From assembly GCA_009837085.1 (NCBI GenBank), contig VXUF01000054.1, forward strand, positions 88,705 through 152,704: DNA of 64,000 nt, in the 5' to 3' direction. The notes under the pieces were generated by a model. It saw only the letters and a program-made list of their open reading frames with translations. It made no database searches and was not told the DNA's origin. Shown piece after piece: positions 15,296-52,320 of this stretch; within the stretch, counting starts at the first letter, position 1; each line of letters opens with the position of its first letter. The stretch comes from Holophagales bacterium. Its GTDB lineage: Bacteria; Acidobacteriota; Thermoanaerobaculia; Multivoradales; Multivoraceae. Made by a program: the position numbers and the translations under genes.

Positions 15296-15326
15296 CGAAG
15301 CCCCGTATTGATGCACGAGTATAATT
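15296..15326 (+). promoter_or_regulatory. Possible sigma-70-type -10 element (perfect TATAAT at about 15320-15325, TTGATG 6 nt upstream) about 90 nt upstream of the ECF sigma gene
   Basis: Read directly from the divergent intergenic region 15235-15414. The spacing to the TTGATG is not canonical. Confidence 0.25.
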
Positions 15327-15414
15327 CCGCCGCCTGCTGGCGGAGGGCCCTTCCGTCTCCCGAAGCGCGGCCTCTTGGACGCTTTGCCCCGGGCCTCCGT
15401 ATCAACAGCGAGGC

Positions 15415-16122
15415 ATGAGATCCGCGCAAGCCATCCGCATGGAACCGCCACGCGAAGATCCTCCCCGGAGCGGTCTCACGATCGCGTACTCCCGCCATCA
15501 ACGCCAGGTGGCGTGGAGCGACGCATCCGACCTCGAACTCCTGGAGGGCCTTCGCCGCGACGACGATCTCGCGCTCGACGAGCTGATGCGCCGCAAGACG
15601 ACCCGGCTGGTTCAACTGGCCACCCGGCTGGTTGGCGATCGGGAAGACGCCCGCGACATCGTCCAGATTGCCTTCCTGCGGGTCTGGAACTCGCGGCATC
15701 GATTCGACCGCCGCTACAGCCCGAACACCTGGATCTACCGGATCGTCTCGAACCTCGCGATCGACCACCTGCGGTCCCGCTCCTCCCGCCTGCGCTCGCT
15801 GCAGAGTTTCCAGGTGCACCACGAGCATCAACGGGGAGAGACTTCCGCGCGGCAACTCGATTTACTCTCCGCCAGTGAAGTCCGGTCCGTGTTCCACGAA
15901 CTCGCCTCCACTCTGAGCGAGAAGCAGCGCGCCGTGTTCGTGCTGCGCGAGATGGAGGGGTTGGCCGGCAAGGAGATCGCCGGCATCCTCGGCATCCGTC
16001 CCTCGACCGTCCGCAACCACCTGTTCAACAGCCGCAAGCTGCTCCGCGAGGAGTTGCTCAGGCGATACCCCGAGTACGCGCAGAGAGCCGGAACCCGTGC
16101 CGGGAGAAAGGAGCGCCCATGA
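15415..16122 (+). CDS. ECF-family RNA polymerase sigma factor (sigma-70 regions 2 and 4)
   Basis: Region 2 (DIVQIAFLRVWNSRHRFD...WIYRIVSNLAIDHLR) and region 4 HTH (EKQRAVFVLREMEGLAGKEIAGILGIRPSTV). Confidence 0.9.
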   Translation: MRSAQAIRMEPPREDPPRSGLTIAYSRHQRQVAWSDASDLELLEGLRRDDDLALDELMRRKTTRLVQLATRLVGDREDARDIVQIAFLRVWNSRHRFDRRYSPNTWIYRIVSNLAIDHLRSRSSRLRSLQSFQVHHEHQRGETSARQLDLLSASEVRSVFHELASTLSEKQRAVFVLREMEGLAGKEIAGILGIRPSTVRNHLFNSRKLLREELLRRYPEYAQRAGTRAGRKERP

Positions 16123-16673: not shown

Positions 16674-17407
16674 GCGCCGTTGGCGCCTTTCGTCGGGCAC
16701 TGGCCGCCCTGCCCCTGCTGACGGCCGCCGGCACACTGCAGCCAGCCTTCGCGCAACCCGGAAACGCGCAGCAGGAGGCCGAGACCCAGATCCGCCACGC
16801 CTTCACGCTCCAGCATCAGCGAGCGGACGACGCCCTGGAGTGGATGCAGAACGAGATGTCGCCCCAGGGCACGATCGAACTGCAGCGAGCGACCAACACC
16901 CTGGTGTTGAGGGACCGGAGCAGCGTGCTCGAGCACCTGCTCGCCTTGCTGCGCGACTTCGACCACCCGCGCCAGCAGATCGAGTTCGAGATCTTCATCC
17001 TCGAGGCGTCGCGCCGCGGCAGCGGCGACCCGCGTTCCGAGCTGCCCGCGCAGCTCACCGACGAGCTGGGCAACTGGCTGGCCTTCACGAGTTACCGTTT
17101 GCTCGGTCAGGGCCAGTTCGAAGCGACAGAGGGCGAGGACGTCCGCTACGAGATCGGCACCGAGTTCCGGCTCAGCTTCCGGGTCGGCACCGTGCTGCTC
17201 GACCGCCGGCTCAAGCTGTACGGAGTCGAGATCGAACGTAGCCGCAGCGCCGTCCTCGACGAGCGAGTCTTCAACGGTCACCTCAACGTGTGGGTCGGGA
17301 AGCCGCTGGTCCTGGCTCTTCCCTATCGGGGATCCGACGCCAGTGGCCTGGTGGTCGCCGTGACTGTACGGTCTCCCCGGGAAGACGGCCTGGGCGCCGG
17401 CGACTAG
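16670..17407 (+). CDS. Periplasmic protein with a single Secretin_N-like domain (no secretin beta-barrel)
   Basis: GTG start overlapping the upstream stop. Signal peptide ending AFA-Q. The segment ATNTLVLRDRSSVLEHLLALLRDFD..QIEFEIFILEAS matches the Secretin_N pattern. Confidence 0.65.
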   Translation: MSAVGAFRRALAALPLLTAAGTLQPAFAQPGNAQQEAETQIRHAFTLQHQRADDALEWMQNEMSPQGTIELQRATNTLVLRDRSSVLEHLLALLRDFDHPRQQIEFEIFILEASRRGSGDPRSELPAQLTDELGNWLAFTSYRLLGQGQFEATEGEDVRYEIGTEFRLSFRVGTVLLDRRLKLYGVEIERSRSAVLDERVFNGHLNVWVGKPLVLALPYRGSDASGLVVAVTVRSPREDGLGAGD

Positions 17408-17421
17408 GAGCGGATCGGGTC

Positions 17422-18659
17422 ATGCAGTTCGTCTGCCGGCTTGGCACCGCCGACGGTCGCATCGTGGAGCAGATCCACGAGGCGCCGGACCTGCGCACCG
17501 CGCGTCGCGAGATCGAGCGCCGCGGACTGTACATCTTCGAGATCAGGCGCCGCGGACTGCAGCACCTCTTCGGGTCGCTTCTGGGCGCGGGTTCGGCCAC
17601 CGGCGAGGGCGGCCGCAAGGCGATCCCGGGACAGGACTTCCTGATCTTCAACCAGCAGTTGGCGGGCCTGCTCAGCGCGGGACTGCCCCTGCTCCAGTGC
17701 CTGGACCTGCTGTGCGAGCGACAGCGCCACGCCGCCTTCAAGGAGGCGCTGAGCGACATCCGGGACCGCGTCGAGAGCGGCGAGGAGCTCTCCGAGGCCT
17801 TTGCGGGCGCGGGGAACTCGTTCCCGCCGATCTACAGCTCGATGCTCAAGGCGGGTGAGCAGAGCGGCGGACTGGAACGGGTCATTCGCCGGTACGTCCG
17901 CCAGCTCAAGCTGGTCACGAGCTCCCGCAAGCGGGTGGTCAGCGCGTTCTTCTACCCGGCCCTCCTGATCTGCCTGTCCGTCGGCATCGTGGCGGTGATG
18001 ATGTTCTTCGTCATGCCCCGCTTCGAGGAGTTCTACGTGGCGCTCGATCTCGATCTTCCCTGGATCACCCAACTCCTCCTCGCCATGTCCCAAGTGCTGC
18101 GCAGTCCGACCACGCTGGTGCTGATGGCCGCAGCAGCGGTCGCGATCTGGGCAAGCTGGAGGATTGGCAGAAGCGGCCGGATCGGTGCCCTGGTCGACCG
18201 CCTGAAACTGCGGTTGCCCATCATCGGGCCGATCTTCCACCGCTTCGCGCTGTCCGAGTTCTGCCGCTCCCTGGCCACCCTGCTGCACGGCGGCCTGCCA
18301 CTCGCCGCGGCGCTCGAAACCGCGGCGTCGGCCGTCACGAACCGGTTCCTGCACCAGCGGGCGGTGGCGCTCGGGCCGCGCATCCGCGAGGGCGAGGCTT
18401 TCCACATGGCGCTCGAAGAATCGGGGGTGTTCACCGACCTGGCGATCGACATGGTCAAGGTCGGCGAAGCGACCGGAGCCCTGGACGAGATGGTGAACAG
18501 CGTTTCCGACTTCCTCGACGAGGATGTCGAGACCCGGACCGAGCGGCTCCTCTCGCTCGTGGAGCCCGTCATGCTGGTCGTCATGGGCTGCACCATCGCA
18601 TTGCTCGTGCTCTCGATGTACCTGCCGCTCTTCAGCGTACTGGGACAGGTGCAGGGCTG

Positions 18660-18660
<1 letters not shown>
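17422..18660 (+). CDS. gspF: Type II secretion / type IV pilus platform protein GspF/PilC family
   Basis: Two T2SSF repeats, 3 TM segments. ATG at 17422 with AGGAG 11 nt upstream. Confidence 0.9.
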
Positions 18661-22549: not shown

Positions 22550-23145
22550 GCGCCAGCCAGGCAAGCTCCAACCGCCCGAACCCGCTGCTGCTGGGACTGC
22601 TCGGCGTCGTCGCGTTGATCGCCGCGTGGCGCTACCTGCCGTCGTTCGGTGGCGGCCCCGGCTTCACGCGCACGACCGCGGCCGACCTGCGTTCGACGAC
22701 GATCGACGTCGTCGAACTCAGCGCCTACATCCTCGGCCAGGCGCCACCGCCCAGCCGGCCGACGCGGGACCCATGGTCCTTCGGAGCCCGGCCCGCCCCA
22801 GAGGCGACCGGCGCCGAGCCGGAAGCGCCTCCGCCCCCCGAACCGCCGCGACCCGCCATTCCCGAGACTGCCGTCCTACCGGAGAAACCGGCGCCGGAAC
22901 CGCTCGGAACCCAGCCACCGCCGGTCGACGTTTTCTACATCGGGTCTTTCGGACGCAGCGACAATCCGATCGCGGTCTTCATCGACGCCGACAAGTCCAT
23001 CTTCAACGCACTCGAGGGCGACCTCGTCAAGGACAAGTTCGAAGTGCAGAACATCGGCTACGAGTCGGTCGATCTGCTCTTCGTGGGTTTCCCGGACGAA
23101 CGGCCGGTGCGGCTCGCCATCGGCGGCCGACCGAGCGGCAGCTAA
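22546..23145 (+). CDS. pilP: PilP-like protein (TM anchor, Pro-rich linker, C-terminal beta domain)
   Basis: ATGA overlap with GGAGG upstream. TM segment LLLGLLGVVALIAAW. The Pro-rich linker and C-terminus (VFYIGSF...AVFIDADKSIF...) resemble PilP. The alternative frame 22542-23153 is Arg-rich nonsense. Confidence 0.6.
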   Translation: MSASQASSNRPNPLLLGLLGVVALIAAWRYLPSFGGGPGFTRTTAADLRSTTIDVVELSAYILGQAPPPSRPTRDPWSFGARPAPEATGAEPEAPPPPEPPRPAIPETAVLPEKPAPEPLGTQPPPVDVFYIGSFGRSDNPIAVFIDADKSIFNALEGDLVKDKFEVQNIGYESVDLLFVGFPDERPVRLAIGGRPSGS

Positions 23146-23158
23146 GGACCTGAACCAC

Positions 23159-25594
23159 ATGAACAAACAAGATCGACAACCAAGGCAGCGACAACGGCGG
23201 CACGCTCTCTCGCTGGGACTCGCGATGCTCCTGATCCTCGCTTCCTGCAGTGGCTATCGGAGCTTCCGGGAGGCGCAGCATTCCGAGCTCACGGGCGACT
23301 GGGATACCGCCGTTCTGCGCTACATGGAGCTCGTCACCGCCGACCCGGCGGATCTCCGCTACCGGGCCGGCCTGCTGCGAGCCAAGACCCAGGCCGCTCA
23401 CGCCCACTTCGAAGCGGGCAGGAAGCTGCAGGAGGCTGGCCGCGATCGGGACGCGATGCTCGAGATGCAGCGAGCCGTGCAGCTCGATCCGACCAACCAG
23501 TACGCCCTGACCGAACTCGAGAAGCTCCGTACGAAGATAGAGACCAGCGGCCTCCAGCCCAGGACCATCTCCCAGATGAAGGACGACGCTCGCGCCGCCG
23601 AGCCGATGCCGCCGACGCTCAGTCCATTGTCCGACGAGCCGGTCAGCTTCGACTTCCCGAACGCGACGTTCATGGAGGTCTATCGGGCGATCGGCCAGGC
23701 TTTCGGGATCAACATCGTCTTCGACACGCGGCTGCGCGACGCACCCGTCGGGACCGAGGGCATCGAGCTACGCGACGTGACGGCAATCGAGGGTCTCGAG
23801 ATCCTGATGCACAGTCTCGGCCACTTCTACCGGGTGCTCGATGAGCAGACGATCATGATCCTCCAGGACACGCAGCAGAACCGGCAGCGGTTCGAGGATC
23901 GCATCATCCAGACGTTCTTTCTCTCGAACTCGGACGTGAAGGACGTGATGACCATCCTGCGCAGCCTGCTGAACACGAGGTTCATCGCGACCAACGAACG
24001 GCTGAACGCGATCGCCATGCTGGACAGCGTGGAGAAGGTCAAGATCGCTCAACGGTTGATCGAGCAGAACGACAAGGCAAAGGCCGAAGTCGTCGTCGAC
24101 GTGGAACTGCTCCAGATAGACACAGCGAAGCTCCAGGAGCTCGGCCTGTCGCTGGACGCGAACCGTCTCGGCATCAGTCTCGACATCGGCGGCGAGGAGG
24201 TGCCCCTCCGGTTGTCGGACGTGGAGTCCCTGAATCAGAACAACTGGGTGCTGACCGTGCCCGGCTTCCTGTTCGATTTCGTCAAGAACGCGACGGATGC
24301 GCAGACCCTGGCCAAACCGCAGGTTCGGATCACCGAAGGTGAGCAGGCGTCCTTCTCGATCGGCGACCGCGTGCCGGTCCCGGTCACCAGCTTCAACACC
24401 GCGAACACGGCGGGCAGCAACATCGTGCCGATCACCTCCTACCAGTACCAGAACGTCGGCATCGACGTGCAGATCACACCACGGGTGCATCACAACGAAG
24501 AGGTCTCGCTCACGCTCAACATCGAGGTCAGCAACATCAGCGGCCAGATCGAAAGCCAGCCGATCATCGGCAGCCGCAACATCGAGACCAGCATCCGGCT
24601 GCGGGACGGTGAGACGAACTTCCTGGCCGGGTTGATCCGTACGTCCGAGACGAACAGTCAAGGCGGCATTCCCGGGCTGTCCGAGATCCCCGTGCTGGGG
24701 CGTCTGTTCTCCCGGCGTTCGACCGACAACAAGCGCACCGACATCGTGCTGACCCTGACGCCCCACATCATCCGGCGCGCGGACATCCGGGAGGAGGACC
24801 TCGCTCCGATCTGGGTCGGCACGGAGAGCAACGTCGTCTACCGAGGCTCGAGCCCGAGGATCGACTCCGGGGTCGACGGGCCCTTCGACGAACCGGCTAC
24901 GGAGAGCGGGGCGCGCGACGAACTCCAGGAACGGCTGCCGCCGGGCCTGCGGGACGCGGCGCCAGAAGGCGGACAGTCACAGGGCGAAGAAGACGATGGA
25001 CCGCCGCTGGGTGTTGAGTTGGTACCGCCGCCCGGAAACCCGCAGCGCAACGCCGGCCGGCTCGACTCCCAACCGGCCCCCGATTCCACACAGATCATCG
25101 TGCCTGCGGCACTCCAGGAACAGGCCGCCCGCTCTACAGCCGAAATCGAGCTGACCTTCGCCCCCGAAGCACTGCGCGCAAGTGTCGGCGACAGTTTCGA
25201 GGTGCGGCTCGACGTCCGGTCCACGGCACCGCTTTCCCACCTGCCGTTGCGGCTGCGCTTCGACCCGTCGCTGATCGAAGTCACCGCGGTGCGGGCGGGG
25301 TCCTTCCTGGGCGACGACGAGGAGATCTCGCTCATGACCAACGAGTCGACCCCGGGCATGGTCGTCGTGGGCCTTAGCCGGCTCGGCGACCGGCCGGGCG
25401 TAGCCGGCCGCGGACGTCTGCTGGCGCTCGAGGTGCGGGCCGTCGATCCGGGGACGGCGACGATCGCTGTCGAGCAGGCCAGGCCCAAGGGCCCGGCTCT
25501 CGAGGAGCTGGCCTCGCCCGACGTTCAGCCGCTCGAGATCGAGATCCGGGACGGAGAGGGTCCGGATCGTGAACGGCCGGAGACGGTCGCATGA
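23159..25594 (+). CDS. Secretin (PilQ/GspD family) lipoprotein with N-terminal TPR-like region and C-terminal cohesin-like domain
   Basis: Lipobox LLILASC. TPR-like segment. Secretin_N repeats. Secretin domain (GGIPGLSEIPVLGRLF, VLTLTPHII). The roughly 150-aa C-terminal extension (EIELTFAPE...FEVRLDV...LRLRFDPSLIEVTAV) is cohesin-like. Confidence 0.88.
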   Translation: MNKQDRQPRQRQRRHALSLGLAMLLILASCSGYRSFREAQHSELTGDWDTAVLRYMELVTADPADLRYRAGLLRAKTQAAHAHFEAGRKLQEAGRDRDAMLEMQRAVQLDPTNQYALTELEKLRTKIETSGLQPRTISQMKDDARAAEPMPPTLSPLSDEPVSFDFPNATFMEVYRAIGQAFGINIVFDTRLRDAPVGTEGIELRDVTAIEGLEILMHSLGHFYRVLDEQTIMILQDTQQNRQRFEDRIIQTFFLSNSDVKDVMTILRSLLNTRFIATNERLNAIAMLDSVEKVKIAQRLIEQNDKAKAEVVVDVELLQIDTAKLQELGLSLDANRLGISLDIGGEEVPLRLSDVESLNQNNWVLTVPGFLFDFVKNATDAQTLAKPQVRITEGEQASFSIGDRVPVPVTSFNTANTAGSNIVPITSYQYQNVGIDVQITPRVHHNEEVSLTLNIEVSNISGQIESQPIIGSRNIETSIRLRDGETNFLAGLIRTSETNSQGGIPGLSEIPVLGRLFSRRSTDNKRTDIVLTLTPHIIRRADIREEDLAPIWVGTESNVVYRGSSPRIDSGVDGPFDEPATESGARDELQERLPPGLRDAAPEGGQSQGEEDDGPPLGVELVPPPGNPQRNAGRLDSQPAPDSTQIIVPAALQEQAARSTAEIELTFAPEALRASVGDSFEVRLDVRSTAPLSHLPLRLRFDPSLIEVTAVRAGSFLGDDEEISLMTNESTPGMVVVGLSRLGDRPGVAGRGRLLALEVRAVDPGTATIAVEQARPKGPALEELASPDVQPLEIEIRDGEGPDRERPETVA

Positions 25595-42341: not shown

Positions 42342-43364
42342 CTAGGCAGCTGGCGCTTCCGGCAAGACGGCCGCCGCCGCCGCCAGGACCTTGCGGTGCA
42401 GCAGGCCGTTGGTGGCCACAACGCCCCGATTCGTTTCCAGGGTCCGCCCCAGACTGAAGTCGAGCTCCCGGCCGAAGGCGTCCGTCACCGCCCCGCCGGC
42501 TTCCGTCACGACGATGAACCCCGCGGCGTGATCCCAGATCTTCTCGCGATAGGTGGCGGAAGACGGCAGGCGAAGATAAATCGAAGCGTCGCCCCGCGCA
42601 ATCGCCCCGTACTTGCACTGGCTGTCCATTCGCACAGGAGCCGCCGTCACGCCCAGGCGCTCGGCTATCCCGGCGTGACCGCCCCGGTCCGAGTGCATGG
42701 ACACCGCCGACTCACAGAAGACGGCTTCCCTCGGCTCGGCAACCGAGGACACGCCAATCCGACGGGGCGCCGGCCCGTCCTCGTCCAGTGGCAATTCCCA
42801 GGCGCCCCGTCCGTGGACCGCTGCGAAGAGGCAACCTCGACCCGCCGCGGAGGGCAGATTCGGACAGCCGAGCACTCCTCCCACGACCTCGCCGTCCTCC
42901 ATCAGGCCGAGTGCGATCGCGTACTGGTCTCCGCGCAGGAACCCCTTCGTACCGTCGATCGGATCGAGCACCCAGAACCTGCCGCTCGCGCCGCCGGTGC
43001 TCGAACAGCGATCGATCGCGTCGCCAACCTCGTTCACGGCGACGCCCGGAAGCTCGGACTCGACAACGTCCGCGACCCTGGCCATGACTTCCCGCCCCTC
43101 GGGGGTCAGAAGGTCCGGCGACGTCTCCTCGCCGACGATGGCGTCTTCCGGTGGCAGCACACGGCTGACCAGGGCTTGCGCCGCGTAGTCCGCGACCGTC
43201 ACCGGCGAACGGTCGTCCTTGGTCAGGAAGGCGCCCCCAAGGACCGCCTGCAGACGTCGGGTAGCCCGGCTCGCGATGCGCACCGCGCAAACCGCGTCCG
43301 TCAGTTCTGCGTAGTTCGTCGAGTCCGGATCAAAGCACACCGCGGCAATGATATGGGCAGCCAC
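42342..43364 (-). CDS. cysQ: 3'(2'),5'-bisphosphate nucleotidase / inositol monophosphatase family
   Basis: IMPase motifs (KDDRSPVTVAD, WVLDPIDGTKGF, GGVATNG-like C-terminus). Confidence 0.8.
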   Translation of the reverse strand: MAAHIIAAVCFDPDSTNYAELTDAVCAVRIASRATRRLQAVLGGAFLTKDDRSPVTVADYAAQALVSRVLPPEDAIVGEETSPDLLTPEGREVMARVADVVESELPGVAVNEVGDAIDRCSSTGGASGRFWVLDPIDGTKGFLRGDQYAIALGLMEDGEVVGGVLGCPNLPSAAGRGCLFAAVHGRGAWELPLDEDGPAPRRIGVSSVAEPREAVFCESAVSMHSDRGGHAGIAERLGVTAAPVRMDSQCKYGAIARGDASIYLRLPSSATYREKIWDHAAGFIVVTEAGGAVTDAFGRELDFSLGRTLETNRGVVATNGLLHRKVLAAAAAVLPEAPAA

Positions 43365-43385: not shown

Positions 43386-43967
43386 ATGCCCCACGGACCG
43401 AAGGACGAAGCCGCCCTGGTGGCGGAGGCGATCGAAGGTTCGGAACTCGCCTTCCGGACGCTGGTCGAGCGCTACCAGCGACCCGTCTTCAGCCTGGTCC
43501 TGCGCATGGTTCGGGACCGCGGCATAGCCGAAGACGTGACCCAGGAGGTCTTCGTCAAGGCCTGGATGGCGCTCTCCCGCTACGACCCGAGGCGGCGTTT
43601 CGCCAGCTGGCTGTTCAAGATCGCGAGCAACGCGGCAATCGATCAGCTTCGCCGGAAGAAGCTCCCCACCACGCCAATCGAGACGAGCGAGCCGGACCAG
43701 TCGTCCATCCTGGACCGCATCGAGGACGAGCGATCGGAGTCTCCCGACACGCTGGTCAAGCGGCGCGAACTGTCGTCCGCTCTCGAAGCAGCGGTGGCCG
43801 CGCTCCGGCCGGAGTATCGGATCGTTGTTCTGCTCCGGTTCCGGGAAGAACTCCCCTACCGGGACATCGCGGAGGCGACCGGCATGCCGCTAGGAACCGT
43901 GAAGACGAATCTGCGCAGGGCGCGCCGCGAGATAGAAGAACGCCTGCGCAAGGATGGCGTAGTGTGA
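43386..43967 (+). CDS. ECF-family RNA polymerase sigma factor
   Basis: Regions 2 and 4 (FRTLVERYQRPVFSLVLRMV...DVTQEVFVKAW; YRIVVLLRFREELPYRDIAEATGMPLGTVKTNL). Confidence 0.92.
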   Translation: MPHGPKDEAALVAEAIEGSELAFRTLVERYQRPVFSLVLRMVRDRGIAEDVTQEVFVKAWMALSRYDPRRRFASWLFKIASNAAIDQLRRKKLPTTPIETSEPDQSSILDRIEDERSESPDTLVKRRELSSALEAAVAALRPEYRIVVLLRFREELPYRDIAEATGMPLGTVKTNLRRARREIEERLRKDGVV

Positions 43968-43989
43968 AGCACGGTGGATCGGGAACCAG

Positions 43990-44020
43990 CGTGAAACCAC
44001 GGCGACCTGGGAAACGTAGG
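43990..44020 (+). promoter_or_regulatory. ECF-type promoter-like motif (TGAAAC-N17-CGTA, with an overlapping GGAAC-N16-CGAC) upstream of the anti-sigma gene
   Basis: Read from the 108-nt sigma/anti-sigma intergenic spacer. Resembles AAC...CGT ECF promoters. Confidence 0.3.
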
Positions 44021-44075
44021 GCGAAGGGCATGCGGAACGTCGCGCCCGAGTCGCCGTCGTAGAATCGCACACGCC

Positions 44076-45938
44076 GTGAGGAAAGAGATGCGGAACCGAA
44101 TTGACCTCCGGACCCTCTTCAAGTCGCTGGAAGATCCCACAGTACCGGCGGGACTGACGGACCGCATCATGCGGCAGGTGGCCGCGACCGGCCGACCGGC
44201 AACGACACCGGCCCCCTCGCCGATCCTGCCTTTCGAGATTCCCCACTGGGCGCGGCTGCCGCTGGCTGTCTCGGCCGCGGCGATGATCCTCCTGCTCACC
44301 GGTGCGGCCTGGTTGGTTCCCTCGTCATGGCTGGGCCTGCTCGATGGTCTTCAGGCCTCGCTGTTCGCCGCCGTCTGGCTCCTGACCCAGTCCGCCGCCG
44401 TGCTGGCGGAAAGCGTGGTCTTCCTGAACGGAGCGGTCCGGGTCGGGGAAGCGCTCGACCTGGTCCTCAACACACCAGCGGCGACGATAGCGATCGCCCT
44501 GGTCACGCTTCTCTGTCTGACGGGAGTCCATCTCCTTCATCGGTTGTCGCGGGCGCCCGTCCACCGGCCACGGGGTCGAGGGTTCAGAGCGGGCGCTCTG
44601 CTCCTCGCCTTCGGGCTGTGCTGCACGGGTGTGGCCTTCGGCCAGCCTCAGCAGGAGTCGGAAGCTCAGGAGGAAGCGCGGGAAGAGGCCGGCGACGTGA
44701 TCGAGGACGCCCGCGAGCGGCTCGATGAAGCCCTCGAGGAGGCCGGGGAACGCGCGCAGGGCGCGGTCGAGGATGCGCTCGAGCGCATCGAGGATCTCGA
44801 ACGCGACCTGGCCGAGGTCGAAGACGCTGCCGGCGAGAGCGGGCCGGCGTTGCGCGTCGACCTCGACAACAAGGTGGCCTTCGGCAGCACCGTACGGGTC
44901 GGTCGCGACGAAGTGGCCTACGACGTCACCTCGATCGGCGGCGGCATCAAGGTGGACGGAGAAGTGCGGGGAGACGCCGTGGCGATCGGCGGCGAAGCGA
45001 AGATCGACGGTCGCGTAACCGGCGAGGTGGTGGCCATCGGCGGAGAGGTCGAGCTCGGCCCGGGAGCGGAGGTGCTGGGAGACATCGTCACCGTTGGAGG
45101 CAGAGTCAGCCGCGAAGAAGGCGCAACGGTGCTCGGAGAGATTTCCGAGGTCGATTGGGGCGACTTCGAGTGGGACTGGGACGGCGACTGGTTCGACGGC
45201 TGGCGCGGCGACTGGTTCCCCAATGTCGGCGAAAGGCCGCCCTTCTTCCGGGTGGGCAAGGTGTTCGAGTTCGTTCGGGCGATCATTTTCACCGGACTGC
45301 TCATCGTGCTCAGCGGCCTGGTTCTGCTCGTTTCGCCCAAGGGCGTGGACCGGGTCCGCTCCGCTGCGGTGTCGGATCCGCTGATCATGCTCGTGGTCGG
45401 CTTCGGCATCGAACTGCTCATCCTTCCGGCCCTGATCGTCGCCAGCATCCTGCTCGCGGTAACCGTGATCGGCATTCCGTTCGCCATTCTCCTGTGGCCC
45501 GCGGCGCTGGTTGCACTGGCGCTCGCCCTGGTGCTCGGCTACACCGGAGCGGCGGCAGCAGCAGGCGACTGGCTCCGGAACCGCTTCAGGGGCGCCAGCG
45601 GTGTCGCGGCCGGGAGCTTTGGCGCCCTCGCCCTCGGCGTGCTCACCATCCAGGCCCTGGCCCTCGTGGCCGACCTGCTTGGCTTCCTCGGCCTGCCGTG
45701 GTTCTTCCGTTTCATGTTCGGCTTCCCGGGCCTCGTCATCTGTTACCTGGCGTGGACGATCGGCCTCGGCGCCGCCTGCATGACCGCCTTCGGTACGTCT
45801 CGATTCGGCGCGAAGGCGGCGCAAACCGAGCCGCCAACGCCTCCACCGGCGAGTGACGAAATCGACGCACCGGAGTCTCCGGGCGGCGACGACCCGACAC
45901 CGACCGTCCCCGAACCCCCGGACGAGCAGAAGGAGTAG
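44076..45938 (+). CDS. Membrane anti-sigma-factor-like protein with acidic coiled-coil, beta-helical (bactofilin/DUF4097-like) repeats, a Trp-rich segment and a C-terminal polytopic domain
   Basis: N-terminus MRKEMRNRIDLRTLFKSLEDP (anti-sigma-like). TM segments. An EEAxEEAG acidic helix. Repeats GDAVAIGGEAKIDGRVTGEVVAIGGEVELGPGAEVLGDIVTVGG. WDWDGDW segment. At least 5 C-terminal TM segments. Confidence 0.6.
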   Translation: MRKEMRNRIDLRTLFKSLEDPTVPAGLTDRIMRQVAATGRPATTPAPSPILPFEIPHWARLPLAVSAAAMILLLTGAAWLVPSSWLGLLDGLQASLFAAVWLLTQSAAVLAESVVFLNGAVRVGEALDLVLNTPAATIAIALVTLLCLTGVHLLHRLSRAPVHRPRGRGFRAGALLLAFGLCCTGVAFGQPQQESEAQEEAREEAGDVIEDARERLDEALEEAGERAQGAVEDALERIEDLERDLAEVEDAAGESGPALRVDLDNKVAFGSTVRVGRDEVAYDVTSIGGGIKVDGEVRGDAVAIGGEAKIDGRVTGEVVAIGGEVELGPGAEVLGDIVTVGGRVSREEGATVLGEISEVDWGDFEWDWDGDWFDGWRGDWFPNVGERPPFFRVGKVFEFVRAIIFTGLLIVLSGLVLLVSPKGVDRVRSAAVSDPLIMLVVGFGIELLILPALIVASILLAVTVIGIPFAILLWPAALVALALALVLGYTGAAAAAGDWLRNRFRGASGVAAGSFGALALGVLTIQALALVADLLGFLGLPWFFRFMFGFPGLVICYLAWTIGLGAACMTAFGTSRFGAKAAQTEPPTPPPASDEIDAPESPGGDDPTPTVPEPPDEQKE

Positions 45939-45962
45939 CCCTCCTCGTAGTAGGCTGCCGGC

Positions 45963-48203
45963 ATGCCGGGCCGCGGCCTCGCAGCGACCGCAGTGCTCGC
46001 AGCGTTTCTCGCTGCCGCCGCCGGACCCGCAAGGGGCGTCAACGACTTCGCGGATTCCTGCCGCGCACTGCAGTCCGGCTCGAACCCGTACTTCGGGACC
46101 GGCATCGTAAGCGCGCTGGAGGCCGAGCTGTCCTCGACCCCTGGAAGCGCCGCCATTCGCCTACGACTCGGCCGTGAGCTGCTGCGACTCGGCGACACGA
46201 TGGGCGCGATCGAGCACCTGTCCGCCGCGACCGGGACGTTGAAGGCATCGTCAACGTCGGATCCGACCGCGATCCTGTCTGCCGAGTGGAGCCTGGCCCT
46301 CGCGCACCTGCAGCGGGCTGAGGATCTGAACTGCATCCACCACGGCGCCGGAGACTCCTCACCCCGGATCTCACGGTCGGCCGACAGTTGCATCCTTCCG
46401 CTGGCATCATCGGCGGTTCATGCTCGCCCGGAACACGCCCGCGCTGCCGGCGACCACTTCCTGGCGATCCTCCGCGGCGGATCGAGCGGATCCCGGCAGG
46501 TGCGCGCCCGTTGGCTTCTGAACCTGGCTCGAAGATTGTCCGGCGACTTCCCGGACGGCGTACCCACCGAGCACCGGATAGACGAAGACGTCTTCACCAC
46601 GACCGGCTCGTACGCGGGCGGTCGCTGGCGGAACCTGGGACCTGAGCTGGGGGTCGACGTGCTCGACCTCGCAGGGGGTGCGGTGGTCGACGACTTCGAC
46701 CGCGATGGCCTGCTCGACCTGATCACGTCGAGCTGGGACCCTTGCGGTCCCCTCCGGGCTTTCCGGAACGACGGCAGCGGCGGCTTCGAGGACACAAGCG
46801 TGGCCTGGGGTCTCGACCAGCAGACGGGCGGTCTGAACCTGGTTCACGCCGACTACGACGGCGACGGACGGCTCGACCTCTTCGTACTACGCGGCGCCTG
46901 GCTGCTTGAGGACGGTCGCATCCGGAACTCGCTGCTGCGCAACGAACTCGACGGCGATCAGGGGCGCTTCGTCGATGTCTCTGAAGTCGCGGGACTGGCG
47001 GATCCCGCCTACCCGACCCAGACTGCCGCCTGGGGCGACTACGACGGAGACGGCGACCTCGACCTCTACGTCGGCAACGAAGCAACCGAGGCGCACGACT
47101 ACCCGTCCCAGCTCTTCCGCAACCGCGGCGACGGCACATTCGAGGACGTCGCCGCCTCGGCCGGCGTAACCAACCTGCGCTACGCCAAGGGCGTCGCCTG
47201 GGGCGACGTGGACAACGATGGCGACCTCGACCTCTACGTCTCCAATTTCGGTTCCAACCGTTTGTATGTGAACACGGACGGCAGTTTCGTCGACGCCGCC
47301 GTGCGGGTCGGCGTCACCGAACCGGAGCGGGAGAGCTTCGCCTCCTGGTTCTTCGACTACGACCACGACGGCGACCTCGATCTCTACGTCGGCGACTACC
47401 GGCCACAGGCAGCCGAGGTCATGGCTTCCTTCTCCGGCTCCCAACCCGCACGCGGTCAGCCGCTCCTGTATCGCAACGACTGCGGCCCCGAGCCTGGCTG
47501 CGGCGGCCGCCTGCGGATGACCGAGGTCTCCCGAGAACTGGGTATCCGGCGACCGGCGATGCCGATGGGAGCGAACTACGGCGACCTGGACAACGACGGC
47601 TGGATCGACTTCTACCTGGGCACCGGAGAACCGGACCTCGCGAGCCTGATGCCCAACGTCATGTACCGATATGACGGCAGGCGGTTCGAAGAGGTCACGT
47701 TCGCCGGAGGCTTCGGACACCTCCAGAAAGGGCACGGCGTCGGGTTCGGCGATCTGGACGGAGACGGAGACATGGACCTTCTCCACCAGCTCGGCGGCTT
47801 CTACCCCACCGACACGTTCGGCAACGCCCTGTTCGAGAATCCAGGCAACGGCAACGCCTGGGTCACGCTGCGTTTCACCGGAGCCGGAGCGGCCACCGGG
47901 GGCGCCAACCGGTTCGGCATCGGCTCGCGGGTTGCTATCGCCGTCGACCGCCCGAACGCGACCCGGCGCACGATCCACCGCCTGGTCGGCTCGGGTGGCT
48001 CCTTCGGCGGCAACAGCCTGCAGCTCGAAGTCGGACTCGGGGACGCGACCCGGATCCTCGAGATCCACGTGCGCTGGGCTGGCAGCGGCACGGAGCAGCG
48101 GTTCCTCGATATCGAGCCCCGGACGGTCTATGAGGTGATCGAGGGCGCGGAGACGCTTCAGACCGTCGCGACCCCGACCTTCAGGTTGCGAGGTTCGCGA
48201 TGA
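45963..48203 (+). CDS. CRTAC1-family secreted protein (FG-GAP/VCBS repeats + ASPIC/UnbV domain)
   Basis: Signal peptide. At least 7 DxDGDGxxDL repeats. C-terminal UnbV_ASPIC block (NAWVTLRFTG...GSRV...). Confidence 0.85.
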   Translation: MPGRGLAATAVLAAFLAAAAGPARGVNDFADSCRALQSGSNPYFGTGIVSALEAELSSTPGSAAIRLRLGRELLRLGDTMGAIEHLSAATGTLKASSTSDPTAILSAEWSLALAHLQRAEDLNCIHHGAGDSSPRISRSADSCILPLASSAVHARPEHARAAGDHFLAILRGGSSGSRQVRARWLLNLARRLSGDFPDGVPTEHRIDEDVFTTTGSYAGGRWRNLGPELGVDVLDLAGGAVVDDFDRDGLLDLITSSWDPCGPLRAFRNDGSGGFEDTSVAWGLDQQTGGLNLVHADYDGDGRLDLFVLRGAWLLEDGRIRNSLLRNELDGDQGRFVDVSEVAGLADPAYPTQTAAWGDYDGDGDLDLYVGNEATEAHDYPSQLFRNRGDGTFEDVAASAGVTNLRYAKGVAWGDVDNDGDLDLYVSNFGSNRLYVNTDGSFVDAAVRVGVTEPERESFASWFFDYDHDGDLDLYVGDYRPQAAEVMASFSGSQPARGQPLLYRNDCGPEPGCGGRLRMTEVSRELGIRRPAMPMGANYGDLDNDGWIDFYLGTGEPDLASLMPNVMYRYDGRRFEEVTFAGGFGHLQKGHGVGFGDLDGDGDMDLLHQLGGFYPTDTFGNALFENPGNGNAWVTLRFTGAGAATGGANRFGIGSRVAIAVDRPNATRRTIHRLVGSGGSFGGNSLQLEVGLGDATRILEIHVRWAGSGTEQRFLDIEPRTVYEVIEGAETLQTVATPTFRLRGSR

Positions 48204-49978
48204 GATCGAGCTGCACAGGCCTCGCGCTGGCCAGTCTGGCCACGTTCTCTCCCATCACCGTCCTCGGGAGCGCAGACGAAGTCCTTTTCACCGACGCCAC
48301 GAAGAGCGCCGGTCTCGACTTCGAGCACTGGAACGGCATGAGCGGGCATCTCTACTACCCCGAGGTGGTCGGCGCCGGCGCGGCGCTCTTCGACTACGAC
48401 AACGACGGCGACCTCGACCTCTACCTGGTCCAGGGCAACCTCCTCGGCAACGAAGCAGATCGAAGCTCCGCGACGAAGGCGTGGACGGGCGACTGGCCAC
48501 CCCGGGACCGCCTGTACCGCAACGACCTGGACTTACGCGACGACCGCGCCACGGTCCGCTTCGTCGACGTCACCGAGGAGAGCGGCATCGCGGCCACGGG
48601 CTACGGCATGGGAGTGGTCGCGGCGGATCTCGACAACGACGGCTGGGTGGACCTCTATGTCCTCAACCTGGGGGCCAACCAGCTCTGGCGCAACGAGGGC
48701 GACGGAACGTTCAGCGACCGCACCGAAGCGAGCGGTACGGGCGATCCCCGCTGGAGCGTCGCCGCGGCGGCCGCCGACTATGACGGCGACCTCGATCTCG
48801 ACCTGTTCATCGTGAACTACCTCGACTTTTCCCTCGCCTCGCACAAGACCTGTCTGACCGAGCGAGGAGAGGTTGACTACTGTCTGCCTAGCGCCTATCA
48901 GCCGGCACCCGACGGTCTGCTCGTGAACGACGGCTCCGGACGGTTCGAGGATGCGACCGTGAGGGCTGGCTTGACCACGGCGCGGCCGGGCAACGGGCTG
49001 GGCATTCTCGCGGCCGACCTCGACGGCGACCAGCGACTCGACTTCTACATCGCCAACGATCTGATGCCGAATCACCTCTGGCTCAACGGGGGCAACGGCC
49101 AACTGGTCGAGGAGGGGCTGATCAGCGGCGCGGCTCTCAACGCGGACGGCGAGGCCGAGGCGAGCATGGGCGTCGCGGCCGGCGACTACGACGGAGACGG
49201 CGACCTCGACCTGTTCCTGACCCATTTCCACCGCGAGACGAACACGCTCTACCGGAACGACTCGAAACGGGGCGCGGTCCAGTTCCGGGACCGCACGAAC
49301 GCGACCGGTCTCGGCCGGCCGAGCTGGGACGCAACGTCCTTCGGCACTGCCTTCGTCGACCTCGACAAAGACGGCTGGCTCGACCTCGCGGCGGTCAACG
49401 GAGCCGTCACGTTCGCCGCCGGAAGACCGCGCACGGAGGACGATCCGTTCCCCCTCGATCAACCAAACCAGGCCTTTCTGAACGTGACCGCAGGCGGCGA
49501 CGGGCGGCAGTTCGAACCGGCACCCGCCGGGTTGCTCGACGCGGAGACGCCGTTCGTCAGTCGCGGCCTGGCCACCGGAGACGTGGACAACGACGGCGAC
49601 ACGGACCTTGTCATCACGAACAACAACGGCCCCGCCCGGCTGCTACTCAACCGGACCGACAGGGACGCCGACTGGTTCGGCGTGGCGCCACTGCTGGACG
49701 CGAGCCGCGGTCACCGACCAGCATCCGGCGTCACCGTGCGCGTGCACCGAACGGGAGCACCGCCGCTGGTCCGACTTGCCGGGGGCGGCGGGAGTTACGC
49801 CTCCTGGGGAGATCCCCGGGTCGCGATCCCATCGGGCGGCCCCGGAATCGACCGCATCGAGGTCCAGTGGGCGGACGGGACGATCGAGGAGTGGCCCGCG
49901 CCGCCACCCAGGGCCTACACTCCCCTGGTTCGCGGCACCGGCGAACGGCGCGACGAGCGGGAAGAGGACGCACCATGA
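48200..49978 (+). CDS. CRTAC1-family secreted protein (FG-GAP repeats + ASPIC/UnbV), paralog
   Basis: Same architecture. 4-nt overlap with the upstream paralog. Confidence 0.85.
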   Translation: MRSSCTGLALASLATFSPITVLGSADEVLFTDATKSAGLDFEHWNGMSGHLYYPEVVGAGAALFDYDNDGDLDLYLVQGNLLGNEADRSSATKAWTGDWPPRDRLYRNDLDLRDDRATVRFVDVTEESGIAATGYGMGVVAADLDNDGWVDLYVLNLGANQLWRNEGDGTFSDRTEASGTGDPRWSVAAAAADYDGDLDLDLFIVNYLDFSLASHKTCLTERGEVDYCLPSAYQPAPDGLLVNDGSGRFEDATVRAGLTTARPGNGLGILAADLDGDQRLDFYIANDLMPNHLWLNGGNGQLVEEGLISGAALNADGEAEASMGVAAGDYDGDGDLDLFLTHFHRETNTLYRNDSKRGAVQFRDRTNATGLGRPSWDATSFGTAFVDLDKDGWLDLAAVNGAVTFAAGRPRTEDDPFPLDQPNQAFLNVTAGGDGRQFEPAPAGLLDAETPFVSRGLATGDVDNDGDTDLVITNNNGPARLLLNRTDRDADWFGVAPLLDASRGHRPASGVTVRVHRTGAPPLVRLAGGGGSYASWGDPRVAIPSGGPGIDRIEVQWADGTIEEWPAPPPRAYTPLVRGTGERRDEREEDAP

Positions 49979-51996
49979 CGAAGCCCATCCGCCTCAGCGG
50001 CGTCGCCCTCATCATCGCGCTCCTCGTGCCTCTCGCAACCACCGGTCTCCACGCGCAGGAAGCGGCTGCGCCCAGGCTGATCCCCGTACCCGAAGTCGAC
50101 CTGCGCGGTGTCGACGGGGCCGTGCGCGACCAGATCGACCAGCAGCGCGAACTGCTCGAGGCGGCGCTCGCCCAGGGGACGCCGACCGGCGACGACGCCG
50201 AACAGTTGGGACTCCTGTTCGGCGACGCGGGCCAGCTCTACCTCGTCTACGACCTTCTGCCGGCCGCGCGAGCGTGCCTGACCAATGCCGCGGAGCTGCA
50301 GCCTCGGAGTTTCCGCTGGCGCTATCTCCTGGGCAGCGCCGCGGAACACCTGGGAGAACTTGAGGAGGCGGTCGAGGCCTATGACCTGGCCAGGACGCTC
50401 CGTCCCGACGACCCCGCGACGGCGGTCCGCCTCGGGCGCGTGCATCTCGAACTGGGACGGCACGAGGAGGCTCGGGGCCACTATCAGCGGGCCATCGCCC
50501 TGCCCGGTTCCACGGCTGCGGCTCACTTCGGTCTCGGCCGCGTCGCCTTCGAGACGGACGACCCGACCACGGCGCTCCAGCACTTCCAGACGGCGCTGCG
50601 GGAGCAGCCCCGGGCCGATTCGCTCCACTACCACATCGCCCTTGCCCACCGCGCACTCGGCGATGACGCGGCGATGCGCGCCGCGATGGAGCTCCGGGGT
50701 GAAGCCCCGGTCGCTTTCGCCGATCCGATCGCCGCGGAGATCAAGGAGTCGGCGACTGGCATCGGAGCCCAGTTGCTGCTCGGGCGCGTCGCGCTGGCAG
50801 CCAACGCGTTCGAGATCGCGGAGGAGCGGTTCCGGGAGGCGGTCCGCGACTACCCCGACAGCACCGCGGCAAAGAGATCCCTGGCGGCGGCGCTGGAGGG
50901 CATGGGCCGGCGGGCAGAAGCGGCCATGTGGTACCAGGAGGCCCTGAACCTGAGCCCCAACGACGTCGGGCTGCTGTTCCAGACCGGGCTGCTCTACAAC
51001 AGCGAGGGGCGCTACCAGGCGGCGGCCGAGCGGCTCCGGCGCGCGGTCGAGATCGAACCCTCATTCGGGCCGGCGTGGGTGGAGCTGGCAAGGAGCCTCG
51101 GCGAGACCGGCGACCACCTGGAAGCCGCGGAAGCCCTGACCCGCGCGCTCGAACTGGCCCCTGACGATCGCAACCTGCGATTCCACCGCGCAAGCAACTA
51201 CCGGCTTGGCGGCCGCCGGGAACTCGCCCTCCGCGAGTTCGAGTCCCTGCTGGCGGACTTCGGATTCGATCGCGAGATCCTGCTGCTGCTAGGGCGAATC
51301 GAGCAGGGACTCGGCCGACCGGCCTCCGCCGCACGCCGCTTCGAGCAACTGGTGGAAGCGGGAGCCGACCCGCCCCTGTTGAGCCAGGCCCACTTCGAAC
51401 TCGGCAACATCCGCACCCAGCAGGAACGCTACGAGGAAGCGATCCCCCATTACCAGCGGGCGATCGCGGCCAACCCGACGCTGAAGGAGGCGTACTTCAA
51501 TCTGGGCACCGCGCTCGGCCGGCTGGGCCAGTTCACCGAAGCCGCCCTCGCCGCCCGACGCGCGCTCCAACTCGACCCCGGCGACAGCCGGGCCCGCGCG
51601 GCCGAGGTAACCGCCCTGCTGCTCGCCGGCGAAGACGCCCGGGTTCGCCTGATGCTGGAACAGACTCTCGAACTACCCGACCAGGGTGGCAGCGGCTTCT
51701 TTGCGCTGCTCCTCGCCGAAGTCCTCGCCGCCTCCGAGGACGACTCCGTCCGGGACGGAACGATGGCCCTGAACCTGGCCACCGACCTGTTCCAGCGCGC
51801 CCAGACCCCGGCCCACGGCGCCGTCGTCGCCCTGGCCTATGCCGAGACCGGCGACTTCGAACAGGCCATCGCCTGGCAGCAACGGCTCATCGAGAACCTG
51901 GACCGCGCCGGCGCGACGGAAGCGCTGCCGGATGCCCGGGAGCGGCTCGCCGCGTACCAGGCCGGGCGACCGGTCCGGGCGCCCTGGCGGCGCTGA
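49975..51996 (+). CDS. Secreted tetratricopeptide (TPR) repeat protein
   Basis: ATGA overlap. Signal peptide. At least 10 TPR units across the length. Confidence 0.82.
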   Translation: MTKPIRLSGVALIIALLVPLATTGLHAQEAAAPRLIPVPEVDLRGVDGAVRDQIDQQRELLEAALAQGTPTGDDAEQLGLLFGDAGQLYLVYDLLPAARACLTNAAELQPRSFRWRYLLGSAAEHLGELEEAVEAYDLARTLRPDDPATAVRLGRVHLELGRHEEARGHYQRAIALPGSTAAAHFGLGRVAFETDDPTTALQHFQTALREQPRADSLHYHIALAHRALGDDAAMRAAMELRGEAPVAFADPIAAEIKESATGIGAQLLLGRVALAANAFEIAEERFREAVRDYPDSTAAKRSLAAALEGMGRRAEAAMWYQEALNLSPNDVGLLFQTGLLYNSEGRYQAAAERLRRAVEIEPSFGPAWVELARSLGETGDHLEAAEALTRALELAPDDRNLRFHRASNYRLGGRRELALREFESLLADFGFDREILLLLGRIEQGLGRPASAARRFEQLVEAGADPPLLSQAHFELGNIRTQQERYEEAIPHYQRAIAANPTLKEAYFNLGTALGRLGQFTEAALAARRALQLDPGDSRARAAEVTALLLAGEDARVRLMLEQTLELPDQGGSGFFALLLAEVLAASEDDSVRDGTMALNLATDLFQRAQTPAHGAVVALAYAETGDFEQAIAWQQRLIENLDRAGATEALPDARERLAAYQAGRPVRAPWRR

Positions 51997-52064: not shown

Positions 52065-52084
52065 TGGTTGCTGCCGCCTCGGCT

Positions 52085-52258
52085 GGACGGACCGAAGGGA
52101 AGGAGTCCCAGCGGACGCTCACGCTTGTTTGGCCCAAGGGAAGTCTGCGCTCGCTTCGGTCGGCTGCGTTCCGCTTCGGCGTTGGTTTCGGTCAGGTTGG
52201 AGGAAGTCACTTGCCTCCAGCCCGCTGGGACCCCTTCCCTTCGGTCCTTGCCGAGGCT
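52085..52258. repeat. MITE-like / structured element with about 26-bp terminal inverted repeats (GGACCGAAGGGAAGGrGTCCCAGCGG) flanking about 110 nt that contain internal hairpins
   Basis: The arms at about 52088-52113 and 52223-52248 are reverse complements with 1 mismatch. Internal hairpins GGAGGaagtcacttgCCTCC and TTGGcCCAA. Confidence 0.6.
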
Positions 52259-52320
52259 GGGCGCTCTCGGCCTGGCGGGAGGCCCCGCGGAGTGTGTCGG
52301 TGCGCCGGCCGTTCCGAGTG

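Follow-up and report, generated by a model that had tools for sequence, protein, structure and literature searches.

A stretch of 64,000 nucleotides (hereafter the window) from contig VXUF01000054.1 of a Holophagales bacterium was analysed, with a focus on the block of five + strand genes at positions 43386-51996. These genes encode, in order, a sigma factor of the extracytoplasmic function (ECF) type, a membrane protein (gene 2), two CRTAC1-type proteins (CRTAC1-A and CRTAC1-B, genes 3 and 4) and a tetratricopeptide repeat (TPR) protein (gene 5), and the block is flanked by opposite-strand genes, Inositol_P upstream and Lactamase_B downstream. A preliminary description made from the sequence had read the block as an ECF sigma/anti-sigma operon, and the gene layout that it gave is borne out by the coordinates: all five genes lie on one strand, with a gap of 24 nt between genes 2 and 3 and overlaps of 4 nt (ATGA) between genes 3 and 4 and between genes 4 and 5. 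Its domain calls for the operon were likewise supported by hidden Markov models (HMMs), with Pfam matches for the sigma, FG-GAP, UnbV_ASPIC and TPR domains. The gap of 108 nt that it reported between the sigma gene and the gene adjacent downstream needed revision. Gene 2 most likely starts at the ATG at 44088, which is backed over the GTG at 44076 by the public gene call and by the N-termini of orthologues (MR(N/T/K)R(I/L)D(L/F)RTLF), and the gap is therefore 120 nt. A database look-up of the exact gene 2 sequence from GTG 44076 returned no match, nor did one with the exact protein sequence of a further gene at 7909-11445 (discussed below); both failures are probably due to differing start-codon calls.

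The first gene of the block (43386-43967, + strand) encodes a protein of 193 aa. ECF (group IV) sigma factors are defined as having sigma domains 2 and 4 only and a length of about 200 aa, and the protein belongs to this group: Sigma70_r2 (72.9 bits) and Sigma70_r4_2 (59.3 bits) were the sole sigma domains found by Pfam, and the sigma70-ECF model TIGR02937 scored 117.9 bits against a cut-off of 42.9. The best named relatives were SigW/RpoE-type models, every one of them under its equivalog cut-off; the SigW models, whose equivalog cut-offs are 209 and 243 bits, scored the protein at 134.7 and 118.9 bits, and it thus failed this test. Orthologues were 79-97% identical within the window's own clade (hereafter the clade) and 33-58% identical in other phyla, and the ECF classification paper contained no gene context matching the block. 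The window also contains a second ECF-type sigma gene (Sigma70_r2, r4_2) at 15325-16122 (+ strand), 28% identical to that of the block, which overlaps the stop-to-stop open reading frame (ORF) of a minus-strand Kdo-transferase gene.

Gene 2 had been described as an atypical anti-sigma factor, and this is upheld by homology and position; what had been overlooked is that the gene is the real fusion of the locus. It is predicted to encode a truncated anti-sigma factor fused to a DUF8173 protein, comprising a membrane anti-sigma module whose zinc-finger N-terminus has been lost (approximately residues 1-165; 44088-44582, + strand) and a DUF8173-type module (approximately residues 166-616; 44583-45938, + strand). 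Full-length relatives were restricted to the clade, where they were 55-94% identical, and the N-terminal 165 residues were likewise found in the clade only. More distant homologues (25-45% identical) corresponded to the C-terminal 60% only and opened with a signal peptide, and the distant loci, almost without exception, had an ORF of 150-220 aa between the sigma gene and the DUF8173 homologue. For instance, locus L005 encodes a sigma factor (55% identical to that of the window), a 173-aa membrane ORF and then a 526-aa DUF8173 protein, and its neighbouring DUF4301 and dTDP-sugar genes match in part those upstream of the window's block.

Direct BLASTP comparison of the 173-aa ORF of L005 with the N-terminus of gene 2 gave an E value of 0.07 only, and profile comparison was needed to detect the homology. 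When a profile of the N-terminal 170 residues from the clade was compared with a profile of the stand-alone ORFs, hhalign returned a probability of 97.5% (E = 6.4e-12, 132 columns), with gene 2 residues 7-154 aligned to ORF profile positions 50-190. Four of the distant stand-alone ORFs matched zf-HC2 (best E = 6.9e-9), with the HxxxCxxC motif visible in the alignment. The fusion reading rests on this hhalign match, on zf-HC2 in the stand-alone ORFs and on the separate ORFs of the distant loci. Gene 2 also passes a test of homology and position in that it directly follows the sigma gene, as do the stand-alone membrane anti-sigma ORFs, and it retains their LP..P.aGF..RVm helix region and membrane segments. 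It gave a weak match to the anti-sigma model NF052375 (E = 7.5e-4, far under cut-off). The sigma/anti-sigma/DUF8173 module spans several phyla, and the natural fusion suggests a physical partnership of the anti-sigma and DUF8173 proteins. Krumholzibacteriota loci show a variant in which a 360-380-aa DUF4097 'Toastrack' protein is encoded directly after the sigma homologue (L061, 7918-9024; L067, 2351-3436; also L077 and L081); next come a 215-aa ORF and the DUF8173 homologue.

Precomputed PF26514 (DUF8173) annotations were present for three relatives of gene 2 (P0056, P0067 and P0074), whilst a local Pfam scan gave no PF26514 match for gene 2, nor for P0074 itself; the Bactofilin model matched gene 2 at 17.5 bits, under its cut-off of 27.9. 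The DUF8173 part consists, in order, of a former signal peptide that has become a membrane anchor, an acidic coiled coil, a beta-helix, a W/D-rich linker, a helical membrane bundle and a Pro-rich tail. The AlphaFold2 (AF2) model contains the beta-helix at residues 257-355 (window 44856-45152), with a block-mean predicted local distance difference test (pLDDT) score of ~89-96, and the helical membrane bundle at residues 387-568, with block means of ~78-96. An unusual Trp/Asp-rich stretch, DWGDFEWDWDGDWFDGWRGDWF, at 45159-45224 (residues ~358-379) leads from the beta-helix to the membrane bundle; clade members conserve this stretch, and AF2 confidence for it is low. The closest local fold matches of gene 2 were bactofilins and DUF4097-type adhesin-like proteins, none of them significant, and a PDB sequence search with gene 2 returned nothing meaningful. 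From the positive-inside rule and the signal peptide of the unfused homologues, the N-terminus and an Arg-rich loop at residues 155-167 are predicted to be cytoplasmic, and the beta-helix extracellular.

A predicted promoter, P2, lies between the sigma gene and gene 2 (43992-44018, + strand), with a -35 element TGAAAC (43992-43997), a spacer of 17 nt and a -10 element CGTA (44015-44018), extended to CGTAGGGCGAAGG. It is the single match to GAAAC-N16-18-CGTA in the 64-kb window. Alignment with L002 and L003, two orthologous loci that share 64% and 55% gene 2 protein identity with the window, revealed a conserved TGAAACC, 16 variable bases and CGTAGGGCGA(A/G)G directly after the sigma gene; across the orthologous loci it is the hexamers that are conserved and the spacer that varies. 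The stop codon of the sigma gene lies 25 nt upstream of the motif in the window, owing to a 27-nt insertion, within TGAAAC in L002 and L003, and within CGTAG in the distant L005. Since the stop codon falls differently relative to the motif, P2 is conserved as DNA and not as protein. In a scan of one genome per species, 79 loci were retrieved and a sigma homologue was detected in 66; the P2 pattern adjoined the sigma gene, in a narrow zone, in 60 of these 66 loci from several phyla, a count that includes many closely related loci as well as distant ones with unrelated flanks. Over 2.86 Mb of strand-bases, the background amounted to 20 matches, or 0.007 per kb per strand. The motif was located 3' of the sigma gene in the Acidobacteriota and Gemmatimonadota loci, and 5' of it, the classic autoregulatory position, in those of the Krumholzibacteriota, Elusimicrobiota, Eisenbacteria and Armatimonadota; L048 carried it both upstream and downstream.

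The P2 hexamers are identical to the sigmaW consensus of Bacillus subtilis, TGAAAC and CGTA (PMC5758882). By conservation and position, P2 is very probably the cognate promoter of the ECF sigma factor, and such an ECF-type motif before gene 2 agrees with the unit initially proposed, namely a sigma factor and atypical anti-sigma factor ahead of two CRTAC1-type genes and a TPR gene. Transcription from P2 would leave a 5' leader of ~63 nt ahead of gene 2. Another sequence, GGAAC-N17-GTCGTA at 44034-44061, was the first promoter candidate and was rejected, being not significant alone and not conserved in L003.

ECF sigma factors commonly, albeit not universally, activate their own expression from a promoter that lies upstream of the sigma gene. 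A weaker candidate promoter of this kind, P1 (GCAAAC-N17-CGTA; 43287-43313, + strand), lies ~73 nt 5' of the sigma start codon, and the pattern (A/G)AAC-N17-CGT was found about 97-129 nt 5' of the sigma gene in 33 of 42 clade loci. The P1-type motif was mostly missing in more distant loci whose main motif follows the sigma gene. P1 falls within the conserved 5' part of the divergent Inositol_P coding sequence as called (residues Y-A-E-L-T-D-A-V), and its conservation is ambiguous because the Inositol_P coding constraint could account for it. The annotated gap between the divergent Inositol_P and sigma genes is 21 nt, hence either the sigma promoter overlaps the Inositol_P gene or the start of the latter is miscalled.

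The remaining three genes of the block encode the CRTAC1-type and TPR proteins. CRTAC1-A (gene 3; 45963-48203, + strand; 746 aa) has a long-form FG-GAP/VCBS propeller and a UnbV_ASPIC domain (FG-GAP_3, 134.7 bits; UnbV_ASPIC, 40.5 bits) and matched the human CRTAC1 structure 9etn with an E value of 5.3e-14. Its N-terminal ~200 aa gave TPR hints, all sub-threshold, and this region may be a degenerate TPR. CRTAC1-B (gene 4; 48200-49978, + strand; 592 aa) has the short form of the propeller followed by UnbV_ASPIC (FG-GAP_3, 139 bits; UnbV_ASPIC, 23.6 bits against a cut-off of 23.4), and is about 30% identical to CRTAC1-A. By their domain content, both belong to the CRTAC1 family. Bacterial CRTAC1/ASPIC proteins are very common, and we know of no function for them. 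A search with CRTAC1-B yielded at least 7966 significant relatives (7966 among 8000 scored candidates), labelled 'CRTAC1 family protein' (NCBI) or 'enediyne biosynthesis protein E4' (JGI); no enediyne polyketide genes were found near the block. The TPR protein (gene 5; 49975-51996, + strand; 673 aa) matched TPR_2 (164 bits), TPR_1 (159 bits) and many further TPR models. Hydrophobic, signal-like N-terminal segments, judged by eye, were present in the products of genes 3, 4 and 5 and in the 7909-11445 protein.

All clade loci reaching far enough downstream (~36 distinct loci) carried the sigma gene, the fused gene 2, CRTAC1-A, CRTAC1-B and the TPR gene, with order and strand invariant. A reverse survey was conducted with four CRTAC1-B homologues from outside the clade that were 51-58% identical by BLASTP (L085-L088), and a CRTAC1(-CRTAC1)-TPR cassette was present in all four of these unrelated loci. 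L086 encodes a CRTAC1 protein of 785 aa, another of 582 aa and a TPR protein of 675 aa, and has no sigma gene; L087 carries the same trio, L085 a CRTAC1 gene and then a TPR gene, and L088 a CRTAC1, CRTAC1, TPR, CRTAC1, CRTAC1 series. The CRTAC1-A orthologues of L086 and L087 were 64-65% identical to that of the window over trimmed alignment columns (55-59% by tblastn), and the TPR orthologues that follow CRTAC1-B in L085, L086 and L087 were about 38% identical. The CRTAC1-CRTAC1-TPR cassette is an independent unit that also occurs in other lineages apart from this sigma module.

L087 also contains the signalling genes. A sigma gene (47% identical) and a methyltransferase gene come first; the promoter motif, a 197-aa ORF and a DUF8173 homologue (37% identical) follow, and an opposite-strand gene then precedes the cassette, downstream of which lie the Lactamase_B and NUDIX genes also seen in the window. 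This locus looks like an intermediate, unfused state. Upstream of its stand-alone cassette, at 5525-5560, is an AT-rich near-palindrome, TTCTAGTAAAACTAGTAAC, which looks like an operator for another regulator; no ECF-type motif was seen upstream of the L086 and L087 cassettes. In L070, CRTAC1-like and TPR-like genes were located 3-5 kb off, on the opposite strand.

We favour, with moderate confidence, a model in which the locus joins two older units, an ECF signalling module and a CRTAC1/TPR cassette, with the cassette placed under the control of the sigma factor. The first unit would consist of the ECF sigma factor, a small membrane anti-sigma factor and a DUF8173 protein (an extracytoplasmic beta-helix with a membrane bundle), as occurs in several phyla; in the clade, the anti-sigma and DUF8173 genes would have fused to give gene 2, with loss of the N-terminal zinc-finger helices. 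The second would be the widespread cassette of two secreted, putatively Ca-binding CRTAC1-type propellers (the long A and the short B) and a secreted TPR protein. By homology and position, the short cytoplasmic N-terminus of gene 2 would tether the sigma factor at the membrane until an envelope or extracellular cue, sensed via the DUF8173 part, sets it free. The free sigma factor would then direct RNA polymerase to the conserved TGAAAC-N17-CGTA motif just past its own stop codon, and transcription from P2 would yield more of the anti-sigma::DUF8173 protein, a negative feedback. Spacing, the lack of a terminator and clade-wide conservation suggest that read-through across the 24-nt gap would extend transcription to CRTAC1-A, CRTAC1-B and the TPR gene. 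Once exported, the trio would probably act jointly outside the cytoplasm, where the TPR protein would scaffold the propellers.

The link between the two units is open to a different explanation, in which the sigma module and the cassette are mere neighbours, a housekeeping promoter inside the 3' end of gene 2 drives the cassette, and the close spacing reflects genome compaction. Several observations point this way and weigh against the joint model. The more distant sigma/anti-sigma/DUF8173 loci had no same-strand CRTAC1 genes, and the sigma-CRTAC1 link is therefore limited to one lineage; a co-occurrence of ECF sigma and CRTAC1 genes, put forward as a check in the preliminary description, thus holds clade-wide and not in general. 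The cassette in turn occurs without the sigma module in other lineages, where stand-alone copies have their own upstream regions of 145-185 nt, and in L087 an opposite-strand gene parts the two units. The gap between genes 2 and 3 ranges from 12 to 155 nt in the clade, and in a few members, at 90-155 nt, it leaves room for a separate promoter. As to the joint model itself, the motif count includes many closely related loci, and both P2 activity and read-through into the cassette are deduced from the sequence. Against mere neighbourhood stands the fact that most clade gaps measure 12-65 nt, too short for an intergenic cassette promoter, which makes a separate promoter unlikely in most genomes, and the upstream region of the stand-alone cassettes is gone in the clade. 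No terminator-like site was found between the block genes, including after gene 2, and the 9.6-kb region contains a single sigma-70-like match, at 43376-43348 of the minus strand, upstream of the sigma gene and not near gene 3. Order and strand are also invariant across the clade, as described above. Taken together, we consider the mere-neighbour explanation somewhat unlikely. Co-transcription of the cassette from P2 would be the simplest reading, and because the cassette abuts gene 2 in the clade, and only there, with mostly short gaps and no terminator-like site, its ECF control is likely.

The role of gene 2 invites a further alternative, namely that the gene encodes a membrane effector or sensor, of the envelope-stress kind and dependent on the sigma factor, which has lost its sigma-binding part, the sigma factor being controlled otherwise. 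Gene 2 had no match to zf-HC2 or any other anti-sigma Pfam model, and HxxxCxxC is absent from its N-terminus; its homology to the stand-alone ORFs begins only at profile position 50, the first ~50 positions being absent; only ~55 cytoplasmic residues are present; and AF2 confidence for the N-terminal part is low. Because the anti-sigma part is truncated, without zf-HC2 and modelled with low confidence, sigma binding by gene 2 is putative, which is a further point against the model of sigma control set out above. Some related loci, in addition, carry Toastrack (DUF4097) proteins at the gene 2 position. Against this alternative, the conserved N-terminal 37 residues of gene 2 correspond in the alignment to the LP..P.aGF..RVm helix region of the stand-alone ORFs, and the zinc motif is likewise missing from intermediate relatives (L005, Gemmatimonadota) that are nonetheless encoded directly after the sigma gene. 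With this position kept across phyla and no other regulator encoded in the block, an effector role of this kind seems to us distinctly improbable, and an anti-sigma function of the gene 2 N-terminus remains our preferred reading.

A last proposal to be weighed concerns the gene at 7909-11445 (+ strand), which the preliminary description had presented as a fused paralog of the block's TPR and CRTAC1 genes, forming a split/fused pair with them. It is a separate gene, outside the unit, and stands alone between polA and an SNF-family transporter gene, with no P2 motif nearby. Its product was said to join TPR, FG-GAP and ASPIC modules. FG-GAP_3 was matched at 77 bits, whereas by Pfam the other two modules are sub-threshold, TPR at best 26.3 against a cut-off of 26.8 and UnbV_ASPIC 21.7 against 23.4; the TPR region of OGT in the PDB matched at E = 4e-6, and PF07593 is precomputed for many members of the protein's family, one of which is named a CRTAC1 family protein. 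There is, in addition, a fourth domain: the protein belongs to a family of 1100-1300-aa TPR/FG-GAP/ASPIC proteins with an unnamed C-terminal domain of 443 aa (10114-11445, + strand), which has many invariant residues and is the best-conserved portion of the protein. This domain had no Pfam match even at E = 10, and was found in 3183 clusters, nearly always at the C-terminus of 1100-1300-aa TPR/FG-GAP proteins. Its AF2 model (pLDDT 76) is rich in beta-strands, and a Foldseek search of the PDB gave no significant match. The family occurs, at about 50% full-length identity, in many Thermoanaerobaculia and other bacteria.

The 7909-11445 protein does hold modules of the same superfamilies (TPR, FG-GAP and ASPIC-like) in one polypeptide. 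In BLASTP comparisons, however, it resembled genes 3 and 4 (E = 9e-5 and 2e-4) in the Ca-binding repeat motif only and showed no similarity to gene 5 (E = 0.09), so that no relation between the two TPR parts was detectable. When the propeller and ASPIC region was used to build a neighbour-joining tree, the protein fell outside the clades of genes 3 and 4, in a separate deep clade shared with other fused proteins at 43-45% identity. Its identity to genes 3 and 4 is only 21-25%, and each of these groups with orthologues of other lineages at 55-65% identity. With the extra domain and an architecture fixed in more than 3000 clusters, the split/fused pair does not hold, and a recent origin of this gene as a fused paralog can be considered extremely improbable. 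No further CRTAC1 paralogs were found in the window. That the TPR and CRTAC1 modules act together, a claim which had been argued from the split/fused pair, is supported instead by the CRTAC1(-CRTAC1)-TPR cassette in the four unrelated loci. The joining of TPR, FG-GAP and ASPIC in the 7909-11445 family lends weak support to such cooperation, and the conserved cassette is much stronger support for it.

Just 3' of the block, between the convergent TPR and Lactamase_B genes, lies a palindromic, structured element of ~195 nt (52070-52264, + strand) whose membership of the block is uncertain. Its arms of 26 nt (52089-52114 and 52222-52247) are 96% complementary, and the fold has a z-score of -4.9. 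Roughly half of the clade loci carry the element at the corresponding position, 11 of them with both arms complete, and distant clade loci had 23-nt arms identical to those of the window; it was absent from the closest relative, L038, and missing or replaced in L007 and L019. In the alignment, 95.8% of cells were paired and seven pairs had compensatory changes, with G-U pairs favouring the + strand. Rfam gave no match anywhere in the window, this element included. It could be a 3' stabiliser or terminator of the mRNA, or a small mobile repeat.

The GC content of the window is uniform at ~0.68, and the block has housekeeping genes as neighbours (polA, selB, aconitase, citrate synthase and rml genes), indicating that the region is part of the core chromosome. 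A recently acquired genomic island was ruled out on these grounds and because the flanks are syntenic in relatives. Between the 7909-11445 gene and the block there are type II secretion/type IV pilus-like genes (T2SS F-family and secretin) at 17242-18660 and 22619-25594 (+ strand). The window matches a 78-kb metagenome scaffold (ENA ERZ23491905, "ENGE20-1_SAMN12347679"). Close relatives of its proteins originated from metagenome-assembled genomes (MAGs) labelled Holophagales, Thermoanaerobaculia or "Candidatus Multivorans", and the isolate names of many relatives (RHO, COS and SB06xx bins) resemble the sponge-species abbreviations of PMC8163846; from these record names, the acidobacterium is probably sponge-associated. 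Sponge MAGs are enriched in TPR proteins (PMC8163846), and proteins with VCBS and ASPIC/UnbV domains are among the repeat proteins listed for sponge symbionts (PMC3909097). Orthologues of the cassette also occur in MAGs whose isolate names, and names only, point to soil, and a host-specific role would therefore be secondary at best. Literature searches turned up no work on "Candidatus Multivorans", CRTAC1-TPR cassettes or ECF modules that have bactofilin-like partners.

The well-conserved locus is one version of a known arrangement, in which target genes are attached to an ECF sigma/anti-sigma operon. What is new is the anti-sigma::DUF8173 fusion, the phylum-spanning module, the promoter between the sigma and anti-sigma genes, and the capture of the cassette by the module. 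For research on ECF sigma factors, the lead lies in a sigma/anti-sigma/DUF8173 set that is conserved across phyla with a promoter position that differs by lineage. The A/B pair with its TPR gene in unrelated lineages is a stronger argument for a three-protein extracytoplasmic machine than any single fusion, and in one clade this cassette stands behind a defined sigma/promoter pair, a testable switch small enough to be moved into a model host, the source organism being uncultured. A more far-reaching idea, which we regard as speculative and unlikely, is that DUF8173 proteins are dedicated sensor partners of a phylum-spanning sigmaW-like ECF lineage, rewired here to switch on a secreted CRTAC1 pair and its TPR partner upon a host-matrix or envelope cue. 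If true, such rewiring would provide the first regulatory handle on the bacterial CRTAC1/ASPIC proteins, which are akin to an animal extracellular-matrix protein. Current understanding is not overturned by these findings, and their value is that of a lead and not of a discovery.

Among known systems, the block can be compared with sigmaW-RsiW of B. subtilis, with which it shares an ECF sigma gene followed by a membrane anti-sigma gene, matching TGAAAC/CGTA hexamers, and SigW models among the best NCBIfam matches of its sigma factor. It differs in that no SigW model comes near its equivalog cut-off, the anti-sigma part is joined to DUF8173 and has no HxxxCxxC zinc finger, the best-supported promoter lies between the sigma and anti-sigma genes and not upstream of the former, with a 17-nt spacer, and the host is an acidobacterium. 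Three-component ECF modules of a sigma factor, an anti-sigma factor and an accessory membrane protein are exemplified by sigM-yhdL-yhdK of B. subtilis, and the sigma factor, 150-220-aa ORF and DUF8173 protein found in many phyla are alike in composition; here, by contrast, the accessory protein is a large beta-helix and polytopic membrane protein, and is fused to the anti-sigma factor in the clade.

The right-handed beta-helix modelled with high confidence in gene 2 recalls the bactofilin-like DUF583 and Toastrack DUF4097 envelope-stress proteins, and Krumholzibacteriota loci carry DUF4097 proteins in the same module. Unlike bactofilins, gene 2 scores below the threshold of the Bactofilin HMM and has no significant fold match to them, and its helix has membrane segments on either side and a predicted extracytoplasmic location, which would not suit a protein of cytoskeletal filaments. 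CRTAC1-A and CRTAC1-B resemble both animal CRTAC1 (PDB 9etn) and the bacterial CRTAC1 family/UnbV proteins (enediyne E4) in having an FG-GAP/VCBS Ca-binding propeller followed by UnbV_ASPIC. They differ in that no EGF-like domain was detected, in being encoded as an A/B pair with a TPR partner, and in having no enediyne polyketide genes nearby.

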